Position numbers: made by a program | Origin: Escherichia coli | GTDB lineage: Bacteria; Pseudomonadota; Gammaproteobacteria; Enterobacterales; Enterobacteriaceae | Assembly (NCBI RefSeq): GCF_001677475.2 | Contig: NZ_CP015229.1 | Direction: 5' to 3' (one strand) | DNA length: 64,000 nucleotides | Shown here: piece by piece, positions 33,001-36,000 of the stretch | How positions within the stretch are numbered: position 1 is the first letter of the stretch | Layout of the letters: each line of letters opens with the position of its first letter

Positions 33001-36000
33001 TCTAGAAGAACATCTTACCAGAATTACACAACATCCGTTGATGAGCGATCTTATCTACTATCCTGCAAAGAAGGGAGATGATGAACCTGAAAACATCCTG
33101 AAAATCGTCAAAGAATGGCGGCGTTCGCAAGGATTGCCTTTGTTCAAAGATTCAGAATGAACTCTAAACAGAATCTGTCACCTGAAAATCATCACGTTCT
33201 GGTTAAGTGATGATTTTCGCTACGAGAAGGTTACGGTGGCGATTGCAGTGATAATAAGCAATGTAAAAAGAAAACATAGGTAAATACTACCTTTCTCTCC
33301 TTCCCTGAACATTCATTTTACATATTAATTCATATAATTGAATTGTTATGCGTTTTATTGCTTGGTGAATCGGTTCAGAGGAAATATTTTTTCGTTTCAA
33401 TTCTGTTAATCTCACCCCTTGATGGGTAAATTTAACATTTGTGCATAGTTACAACTTTGAAACGTTATATATGTCAAGTTGTTAAAATGTGCACAGTTTC
33501 ATGATTTCAATCAAAACCTGTATGGACATAAGGTGAATACTTTGTTACTTTAGCGTCACAGACATGAAATTGGTAAGACCAATTGACTTCGGCAAGTGGC
33601 TTAAGACAGGAACTCATGGCCTACAGCAAAATCCGCCAACCAAAACTCTCCGATGTGATTGAGCAGCAACTGGAGTTTTTGATCCTCGAAGGCACACTCC
33701 GCCCGGGCGAAAAACTCCCACCGGAACGCGAACTGGCGAAACAGTTTGACGTCTCCCGTCCCTCCTTGCGTGAGGCGATTCAACGTCTCGAAGCGAAGGG
33801 CTTGTTGCTTCGTCGCCAGGGTGGCGGCACTTTTGTCCAGAGCAGCCTATGGCAAAGCTTCAGCGATCCGCTGGTGGAGCTGCTCTCCGACCATCCTGAA
33901 TCACAGTATGACTTGCTCGAAACACGACACGCCCTGGAAGGTATCGCCGCTTATTACGCCGCGCTGCGTAGTACCGATGAAGACAAGGAACGCATCCGTG
34001 AACTCCACCACGCTATAGAGCTGGCGCAGCAGTCTGGCGATCTGGACGCGGAATCAAACGCCGTACTCCAGTATCAGATTGCCGTCACCGAAGCGGCCCA
34101 CAATGTGGTTCTGCTTCATCTGCTAAGGTGTATGGAGCCGATGTTGGCCCAGAATGTCCGCCAGAACTTCGAATTGCTCTATGCGCGTCGCGAGATGCTG
34201 CCGCTGGTGAGTAGTCACCGCACCCGCATATTTGAAGCGATTATGGCCGGTAAGCCGGAAGAAGCGCGCGAAGCATCGCATCGCCATCTGGCCTTTATCG
34301 AAGAAATTTTGCTCGACAGAAGCCGTGAAGAGAGCCGCCGTGAGCGTTCTCTGCGTCGTCTGGAGCAACGAAAGAATTAGTGATTTTTCTGGTAAAAATT
34401 ATCCAGAAGATGTTGTAAATCAAGCGCATATAAAAGCGCGGCAACTAAACGTAGAACCTGTCTTATTGAGCTTTCCGGCGAGAGTTCAATGGGACAGGTT
34501 CCAGAAAACTCAACGTTATTAGATAGATAAGGAATAACCCATGTCAGAACGTTTCCCAAATGACGTGGATCCGATCGAAACTCGCGACTGGCTCCAGGCG
34601 ATCGAATCGGTCATCCGTGAAGAAGGTGTTGAGCGTGCTCAGTATCTGATCGACCAACTGCTTGCTGAAGCCCGCAAAGGCGGTGTCAACGTAGCCGCAG
34701 GCACCGGTATCAGCAACTACATCAACACCATCCCCGTTGAAGAACAACCGGAGTATCCGGGTAATCTGGAACTGGAACGCCGTATTCGTTCAGCTATCCG
34801 CTGGAACGCCATCATGACGGTTCTGCGTGCGTCGAAAAAAGACCTCGAACTGGGCGGCCACATGGCGTCCTTCCAGTCTTCCGCAACCATTTATGATGTG
34901 TGCTTTAACCACTTCTTCCGTGCACGCAACGAGCAGGATGGCGGCGACCTGGTTTACTTCCAGGGCCACATCTCCCCGGGCGTGTACGCTCGTGCTTTCC
35001 TGGAAGGTCGTCTGACTCAGGAGCAGCTGGATAACTTCCGTCAGGAAGTTCACGGCAATGGCCTCTCTTCCTATCCGCACCCGAAATTGATGCCGGAATT
35101 CTGGCAGTTCCCGACCGTATCTATGGGGCTGGGTCCGATTGGTGCTATTTACCAGGCTAAATTCCTGAAATATCTGGAACACCGTGGCCTGAAAGATACC
35201 TCTAAACAGACCGTTTACGCGTTCCTCGGCGACGGTGAAATGGACGAACCGGAATCCAAAGGTGCGATTACCATCGCTACCCGTGAAAAACTGGATAACC
35301 TGGTCTTCGTTATCAACTGTAACCTGCAGCGTCTTGACGGCCCGGTCACCGGTAACGGCAAGATCATCAACGAACTGGAAGGCATCTTCGAAGGTGCTGG
35401 CTGGAACGTGATCAAAGTGATGTGGGGTAGCCGTTGGGATGAACTGCTGCGTAAAGATACCAGCGGTAAACTGATCCAGCTGATGAACGAAACCGTTGAC
35501 GGCGACTACCAGACGTTCAAATCGAAAGATGGTGCGTACGTTCGTGAACACTTCTTCGGTAAATATCCTGAAACCGCAGCACTGGTTGCAGACTGGACTG
35601 ACGAGCAGATCTGGGCGCTGAACCGTGGTGGTCACGATCCGAAGAAAATCTACGCTGCATTCAAGAAAGCGCAGGAAACCAAAGGCAAAGCGACAGTAAT
35701 CCTTGCTCATACCATTAAAGGTTACGGCATGGGCGACGCGGCTGAAGGTAAAAACATCGCGCACCAGGTTAAGAAAATGAACATGGACGGCGTGCGTCAT
35801 ATCCGCGACCGTTTCAATGTGCCGGTGTCTGATGCAGATATCGAAAAACTGCCGTACATCACCTTCCCGGAAGGTTCTGAAGAGCATACCTATCTGCACG
35901 CTCAGCGTCAGAAACTGCACGGTTATCTGCCAAGCCGTCAGCCGAACTTCACCGAGAAGCTTGAGCTGCCGAGCTTGCAAGACTTCGGCGCGCTGCTGGA

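Follow-up and report, generated by a model that had tools for sequence, protein, structure and literature searches.

A predicted PdhR operator ahead of pdhR-aceEF-lpd is retained downstream of the PAIusp island in Escherichia coli

Judged by its sequence, the 17-bp element upstream of pdhR in the window (the whole 64,000-nucleotide stretch of E. coli contig NZ_CP015229.1 that was analysed) is the documented PdhR box of K-12, and it is very probably the operator for negative autoregulation of pdhR-aceEF-lpd, with the upstream PAIusp island leaving the control region untouched. The operator is a textbook one and stands next to a published island, so that both are already known; the analysis brings together the box, its promoter, the cognate regulator and the boundaries of the island, the coordinates of which are collected in Table 1.

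Table 1. Features of the window around the aroP-pdhR intergenic region, in order of position
Feature	Position	Strand	Description
aroP	28497-29870	-	Left flank of the island
Left copy of the ~21-bp spacer motif	30062-30081	+	TAAAAAAAACCAATTGTAAG; flanks the island
PAIusp island	30082-33263	+	3182 bp; boundaries approximate; from Pfam, RefSeq annotation of matching genomes and the literature
usp	30394-32175	+	593 aa; Hcp, S-pyocin and colicin-DNase domains (PF05638, PF06958, PF21431)
Immunity gene 1	32178-32462	+	PF01320
Degenerate orphan DNase remnant	~32762-32869		
Immunity gene 2	32870-33160	+	PF01320
Right copy of the ~21-bp spacer motif	33264-33284		Conserved; 352 nt before the ATG
Retained ancestral aroP-pdhR spacer, pdhR side	33264-33567	+	From alignments and the spacer motif
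CRP-like site	33488-33503	.	TGTGCacagttTCATG (TGTGC-N6-TCATG); centred near -62.5; our reading against the CRP consensus; identical to K-12
FNR site	33501-33514	.	ATGATttcaATCAA; centred at -50.5; identical to K-12
Core promoter	33523-33551	+	-35-like TGGACA at 33523-33528, 17-nt spacer, -10-like TACTTT at 33546-33551; our reading against the published start
pdhR operon transcription start (A)	33558	+	58 nt 5' of the ATG; mapped from the published 39-mer
PdhR box (operator)	33568-33584	.	AATTGGT-aag-ACCAATT; +11 to +27 from the pdhR transcription start
pdhR	33616-34380	+	GntR-type winged-helix and FCD effector domains (Pfam); pyruvate-sensing repressor
aceE	34541-37204	+	NCBIfam equivalog
aceF	37219-39111	+	NCBIfam equivalog
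lpd	39433-40860	+	NCBIfam equivalog; dihydrolipoyl dehydrogenase

The exact 17-mer, AATTGGTAAGACCAATT, lies on the + strand at 33568-33584, and its arms, AATTGGT and ACCAATT, form a perfect 7-bp inverted repeat. All 14 of the 14 positions of the PdhR consensus AATTGGTnnnACCAATT are matched, including the GGTnnnACC core. The earlier note had described the palindrome as perfect, which is true of the 14 consensus positions in the two arms and not of all 17 bases, since the AAG at the centre is not self-complementary and the reverse strand reads AATTGGTCTTACCAATT, i.e. with three differences. The same note had placed the box about 30 nt upstream of the pdhR start, and the gap counted to the ATG at 33616-33618 is indeed 31 nt. 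Two inverted 7-bp half-sites are what a dimer of PdhR, a repressor of the GntR/FadR subfamily, would be expected to fit.

No second site with three or fewer mismatches to the box is present in the 64-kb window. Short palindromes can arise by chance, and nothing more than this speaks for reading the element as a functionless match; meanwhile, simple arithmetic gives an expectation of about 7e-6 for the exact 17-mer in 64 kb, shuffled sequence contained a mean of only 0.11 sites even when three mismatches were allowed (n=100 shuffles), and both position and sequence match a characterised K-12 site that is conserved across genera. Together with near-invariance within E. coli, the shuffles and the cross-genus conservation refute the chance reading, the probability of which is negligible.

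The published K-12 data concern the same bases. The K-12 box of pdhR is listed as AATTGGTaagACCAATT, with a 14/14 match and a genome centre at 122052, and among the gSELEX peaks that are given for PdhR it is the strongest (PMC7660256); in the K-12 alignment the centre of the window box, 33576, falls at position 122052 with a constant offset. Furthermore, the 37-bp published gel-shift probe CACAGACATGAAATTGGTAAGACCAATTGACTTCGGC equals window positions 33557-33593 base for base, and this probe was shifted by PdhR in the gel-shift assays of two studies (PMC2936295, PMC3265435). PdhR ChIP enrichment at the pdhR site in K-12 was 11.6-fold (PMC3265435). The other K-12 PdhR boxes, for example those of cyoA, ndh, grcA/yfiD and glcD, have the consensus and the GGTnnnACC core in common with the window box, but they belong to other promoters and match only 8-13 of the 14 consensus positions, the pdhR site being the sole 14/14 entry in the table (PMC7660256).

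The cognate regulator is encoded intact directly downstream. The window PdhR is identical to K-12 PdhR at 253 of 254 residues and scores 495 bits against the PdhR NCBIfam equivalog (cut-off 330), compared with 216 bits against the LldR model, which is below the cut-off of 311. The operon continues beyond pdhR into aceE, aceF and lpd, all on the + strand (34541-40860).

It is conceivable that the box is mainly used by another GntR regulator of the FadR subfamily, namely LldR or GlcC, given that PdhR scores as a relative of both, that the LldR sites listed in the published gSELEX table share a TGGT...ACC core (PMC10272880), and that the exact 17-mer also occurs beside distant GntR/FCD genes in Pseudomonas and Bradyrhizobium. 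More generally, the operators of LldR, GlcC and FadR are likewise short inverted repeats with a TGGT...ACCA-type core, bound by dimers with a metabolite-sensing C-terminal domain, but their effectors and target genes are different. However, PdhR binding to the exact sequence has been published directly (PMC7660256, PMC3265435, PMC2936295), and in vivo occupancy by PdhR, not by LldR or GlcC, was already reported for K-12. In addition, the box is fixed 30-32 nt before pdhR itself in the Enterobacteriaceae, and pdhR is absent from the consulted section of the LldR gSELEX table (PMC10272880). Cross-binding by LldR was considered and set aside, as it is unsupported by the LldR gSELEX data in that same section (PMC10272880), and control of the box chiefly by LldR or GlcC is very improbable.

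Placement of the box relative to the promoter relies on a published 39-mer, GTATGG...GCGTCA, the last base of which is the transcription start, -58 from the ATG (PMC2759082), and which was found exactly at 33520-33558. With the published start at 33558, the box spans +11 to +27, i.e. it is located downstream of the core promoter and within the leader, the start being a K-12 mapping. The PdhR footprint, which we take to cover +11 to +27 in K-12, agrees with the coordinates computed in the window, and the original footprinting of the K-12 pdhR-aceEF-lpd operator was reportedly that of Quail and Guest in 1995. The operator is positioned downstream of the transcription start and not upstream of the promoter, which refines the first reading of the region.

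The sigma-70 and sigma-38 elements of the pdhR promoter have been called 'poor' (PMC2759082); the -35 and -10 elements of the core promoter are invariant across all genera aligned. An FNR site was placed at -50.5 of pdhR-aceEF-lpdA by ChIP-seq (PMC3688515), and CRP is among the listed regulators of the promoter (PMC2759082, PMC5888115). Identity to K-12 is 100% over the stretch between -123 and the ATG, which takes in the 39-mer, the start, the FNR site and the box; within the 190-bp block, the window departs from K-12 by substitutions at -127, -125 and -124 and nowhere else. The earlier note held that the autoregulatory site was intact and proposed alignment to the K-12 promoter region as a check; the alignment upholds this, with the promoter elements neither displaced nor disrupted, PdhR nearly identical, and aceE, aceF and lpd in place. 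Compared with the K-12 operator, therefore, the window has the same 17-mer with the same 31 nt to the ATG and the same +11 to +27 position, the same bases throughout -123 to the ATG, the same regulator (253/254) and the same downstream operon, and differs in the three substitutions at -127, -125 and -124, in a divergent upstream allele, and in the presence about 300 bp upstream of PAIusp, which is absent from K-12. In an Rfam search of 29800-34700, neither the operator nor the leader matched an RNA family; the same search returned the known tp2 sRNA between pdhR and aceE, and otherwise sub-threshold noise.

In K-12, binding of PdhR to the box represses the pdhR-aceEF-lpd operon, pdhR included, and the repression is lifted by pyruvate (PMC7660256, PMC3265435, PMC2759082). 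We infer that the same circuit operates in this strain, and no feature of the sequence speaks against it. When pyruvate is low, PdhR would occupy the box just 3' of the start and block both its own gene and the pyruvate dehydrogenase genes, and binding of pyruvate to the FCD domain would release PdhR so that the operon is induced, the net effect being negative autoregulation with a metabolite switch. A repressor seated at +11 to +27 may block RNA polymerase by occlusion, by preventing promoter escape or as a roadblock. PAIusp, about 300 bp upstream of the box, leaves the box, the core promoter and the FNR and CRP sites untouched. Quantitative regulation could nevertheless differ, since the sequence upstream of -124 is not that of K-12 and an AT-rich, co-directional island of 3.2 kb is situated about 300 bp upstream.

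Conservation of the box extends from E. coli to other Gammaproteobacteria. Of 5423 complete E. coli genomes, 5378 carry a 57-nt stretch around it at 100% identity, and a 30-nt stretch is found exactly, as a single copy in each, in 5407 of 5426, whether the island is present or absent. Among Escherichia, Citrobacter, Enterobacter and Klebsiella, the alignment is invariant in the -35/-10 region and in both arms of the box and nearly invariant in the FNR site, and a gap of 30-32 nt separates the box from pdhR in E. albertii, Citrobacter, Enterobacter and Klebsiella. When a single genome of each species was scanned, exact matches to the 17-mer were widespread in the Gammaproteobacteria; when 80 loci from other species were examined, a PdhR-like GntR/FCD gene followed within about 320 nt for 63 of the 81 exact occurrences, the interval being 30-32 nt in the Enterobacteriaceae, 21-22 nt in Shewanella and approximately 194 nt in Pseudomonas. 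In S. bongori and C. freundii that carry the island, the insertion is in the same place and the box is intact.

The island itself is the known PAIusp, already published. It is situated inside the aroP-pdhR intergenic region, which measures 3745 bp in the window and 540 bp in K-12. The Usp protein is a T6SS effector of the Hcp-ET3-4 type, as described for UTI89 (PMC6730261), and usp is transcribed from the divergent P3 promoter of aroP, with TyrR as activator and H-NS as repressor (PMC7142922); the -10 element published for P3, TGGTAT (PMC7142922), is present at 30009-30014. The window copy agrees with PAIusp as described (PMC7142922, PMC6730261) in its Hcp/S-pyocin/colicin-DNase protein, its immunity genes, its low G+C content and its location in the aroP-pdhR spacer. 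Downstream of usp there are two colicin/pyocin-type immunity (imu) genes, both intact, together with one degenerate orphan DNase remnant, whereas the type-strain island has three imu genes (PMC7142922). G+C content is 31-39% at both ends of the island and 34-39% on the pdhR side up to the promoter. Of 5426 complete E. coli genomes, 1054 have the same island genes in their RefSeq annotation, and the closest of the complete RefSeq E. coli genomes matches the island at 98.0% nucleotide identity. Homologues of usp in Superficieibacter and Kluyvera are located elsewhere.

The boundaries of the island can be drawn more sharply than by identity to K-12. High identity to K-12 ends at 29957 and resumes at 33426 (-132), and the same break is seen against every island-free genome. 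The 33425/33426 break was nevertheless rejected as the right end of the island, because sensitive blastn and cross-genus alignments carry homologous spacer back to 33335-33366, and a spacer motif is found at 33264-33284. In the more sensitive alignment, nucleotides 1-211 of the K-12 spacer correspond to window positions 29871-30080 and nucleotides 261-540 to 33335-33615. Within four edits, the motif TAAAAAGAAACCATTTGTAAA has just two matches in the whole window, at 30062-30081 and 33264-33284, and island-free spacers have a single copy. The motif lies 349 nt before the pdhR ATG in K-12 and 352 nt before it in the window, so the island proper would run from about 30082 to 33263 and the pdhR-side half of the ancestral spacer would be wholly retained. 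This, together with the cross-genus alignment, puts the right end at about 33263 (the first spacer nucleotide, 33264, being -294), some 160 bp upstream of the identity break, so that about 350 bp of ancestral DNA is retained upstream of pdhR. The claim in the earlier note that the island sits upstream of, and not within, the pdhR core promoter/operator agrees with these boundaries, as the right end is about 300 bp upstream of the box. PAIusp looks like a clean insertion of 3.2 kb, bordered by an imperfect copy of a spacer motif of about 21 bp. Long repeats bracketing the island, direct or inverted, were not found in a repeat search, and the short flanking motif was found by pattern search alone; a literature search on the conserved GTGAATCGGTTCA motif returned unrelated primer sequences and nothing else.

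The retained spacer is itself a mosaic. Positions 33435-33567 are identical to K-12, but 33366-33434 form a divergent, Citrobacter/Salmonella-like allele, with 58% identity to K-12 and E. albertii, 74-83% to Citrobacter and 78% to S. bongori, compared with 100% identity to K-12 over 33435-33557. Homology is weak at 33285-33334. On the left, where a donor-like signal was also sought, no relative stands out over 29958-30083, all those compared being about equally distant (57-69%). The island appears to have come in with a short stretch of Citrobacter/Salmonella-like spacer, the right end of which abuts the conserved pdhR regulatory block. The simplest reading is homologous recombination that brought in the island along with donor-type spacer, the right crossover falling somewhere around -132 to -124, where the conserved pdhR block begins.

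With the operator sequence intact, the island could still conceivably rewire the operon, either by read-through of P3-driven usp/immunity transcription into pdhR or by spreading of H-NS from the AT-rich island over the promoter, such that control in usp+ strains no longer lies mainly with PdhR autoregulation. The island genes and pdhR share one strand, usp is transcribed from the TyrR-activated and H-NS-repressed aroP P3 (PMC7142922), and G+C content stays at 34-39% up to the promoter. A consensus terminator scan from the last immunity gene to pdhR found no canonical intrinsic terminator, although the loop limit of the scan excludes a conserved hairpin with a 12-bp stem and an 11-nt loop that was found by folding just 3' of the last immunity gene (33184-33218, -21.8 kcal/mol, z = -2.3) and that could terminate transcription. 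Moreover, the island and the ATG are kept apart by about 350 bp of ancestral DNA, and the promoter block is unchanged in the 1054 island-bearing genomes, which suggests that normal control is still under selection. Rewiring of the operon is accordingly unlikely, and autoregulation by PdhR at an untouched control region remains the preferred reading. A more specific variant, in which P3 transcription of usp+ strains passes the usp and immunity genes, is partly stopped at 33184-33218 and enters pdhR-aceEF-lpd, with PdhR at +11 to +27 also acting as a roadblock to the incoming transcription, is decidedly unlikely. If it were true, the operator would either insulate central metabolism from the island or leak, and a leak would mean that, in uropathogenic strains, aromatic amino acids, temperature or urea influence pyruvate dehydrogenase expression.

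The result matters little except for correct annotation, and what it adds to published knowledge is small, namely sharper island boundaries. PAIusp, a genotoxin/T6SS-effector island present in about one fifth of complete E. coli genomes, leaves the control region of the pyruvate dehydrogenase operon unchanged. PdhR autoregulation as established in K-12 can thus probably be assumed for usp+ strains, which are mostly uropathogenic.

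The spacer that adjoins PAIusp, the toxin island between aroP and pdhR, on its pdhR side is a mosaic. The segment at 33366-33434 shares 58% identity with both K-12 and E. albertii, against 74-83% with Citrobacter and 78% with S. bongori, and from 33435 onward the spacer is 100% K-12-like. This pattern suggests that PAIusp was imported by homologous recombination together with a donor-type flank, in which case the crossover would fall between about -132 and -124 relative to the pdhR start. No clear donor signal emerged from the matching comparison of the left flank. The mosaic segment opens with the motif GTGAATCGGTTCA, which is almost invariant across the aligned spacers of Escherichia, Citrobacter, Salmonella and most Enterobacter. 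It resembles a half-palindromic Cra (FruR) box, and a literature search for the motif found no paper that mentions it.

Features in and around PAIusp (window positions)
Feature	Position	Strand	Detail
aroP-usp spacer (left flank)	29958-30083		
P3 -10 element	30009-30014		TGGTAT
Flanking repeat, left copy	30062-30081		
Palindrome in usp	30529-30558		30 bp, perfect
Duplicated segment, first copy	31915-32519		DNase domain 3' end + immunity gene
Duplicated segment, second copy	32606-33217		~690 bp downstream
Second toxin fragment	32762-32869		35-aa ORF
Hairpin	33184-33218		12-bp stem, 11-nt loop
Flanking repeat, right copy	33264-33284		
Mosaic spacer segment	33366-33434		
GTGAATCGGTTCA motif	33366-33378		-192 to -180 of pdhR start
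PdhR box	33568-33584		
tp2 sRNA (RF02030)	34425-34538	-	pdhR-aceE intergenic region

A conserved spacer motif of ~21 bp (consensus TAAAAAGAAACCATTTGTAAA) also brackets PAIusp as an imperfect direct repeat. When up to four edits were allowed, a pattern search of the whole 64-kb window returned two matches, both at the island flanks, and spacers without the island carry a single copy. Judged by sequence, the repeat looks like a target duplication or an attachment-like site. Typical pathogenicity islands have direct-repeat flanks, and PAIusp has been set in contrast to them (PMC7142922). On the aroP side, the regulatory region has diverged strongly from K-12 (~58% identity) beyond the first 87 bp before the aroP ATG, although a TyrR-box-like TGTAAGTTTGCAATTCCG... 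block and the -10 element of the aroP promoter P3 are retained; regulation of aroP may differ from that in K-12.

Within the island, the 3' end of the usp DNase domain and its immunity gene have been duplicated with 71-88% identity, and the product is a typical orphan toxin-immunity module, further copies of which occur in some genomes (hits H42-H44). In this copy the second toxin fragment has degenerated, but its counterpart in ECO20, the E. coli strain with the closest usp allele, carries the annotation of a 79-aa protein with a DNase domain. Directly after the last immunity gene lies a hairpin with a perfect stem (GAAAATCATCAC ... GTGATGATTTTC), whose 80-nt fold has an energy of -21.8 kcal/mol (z = -2.3). 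The islands of S. bongori and C. freundii keep this hairpin, that of S. bongori with one compensatory A-T to G-C change, and it is a possible terminator of the usp-imu transcript. The Hcp-domain coding part of usp contains the palindrome AACGCCATTACCAGT|ACTGGTAATGGCGTT, the sole one in the window with arms of at least 10 bp; it has two mismatches in ECO20 and many in other genera, and may represent a quasipalindrome that template switching has 'corrected'.

At the PdhR box, Enterobacter sp. Ag1 and Klebsiella sp. BIGb0407 carry AATTGGTCTTACCAATT, read in the pdhR direction, in which both arms are unchanged and the central triplet is complemented (CTT for AAG), consistent with a non-specific box centre. 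The pdhR upstream region has no match whatever in 3 of 5426 E. coli genomes, and in the E. coli genome collection the operator region is present in three records labelled plasmids; these are probably deletions or mislabelled replicons. Antisense to the operon, the Rfam sRNA family tp2 is matched over its full length at 103 bits, where the family's gathering score is 50.

Close usp homologues with immunity genes were found in Superficieibacter sp. HKU1 (82% identity) and on a Kluyvera intermedia metagenome contig (69%), in both cases at unrelated chromosomal sites outside the aroP-pdhR interval. Their placement means that the usp-immunity module is mobile beyond the aroP-pdhR site.
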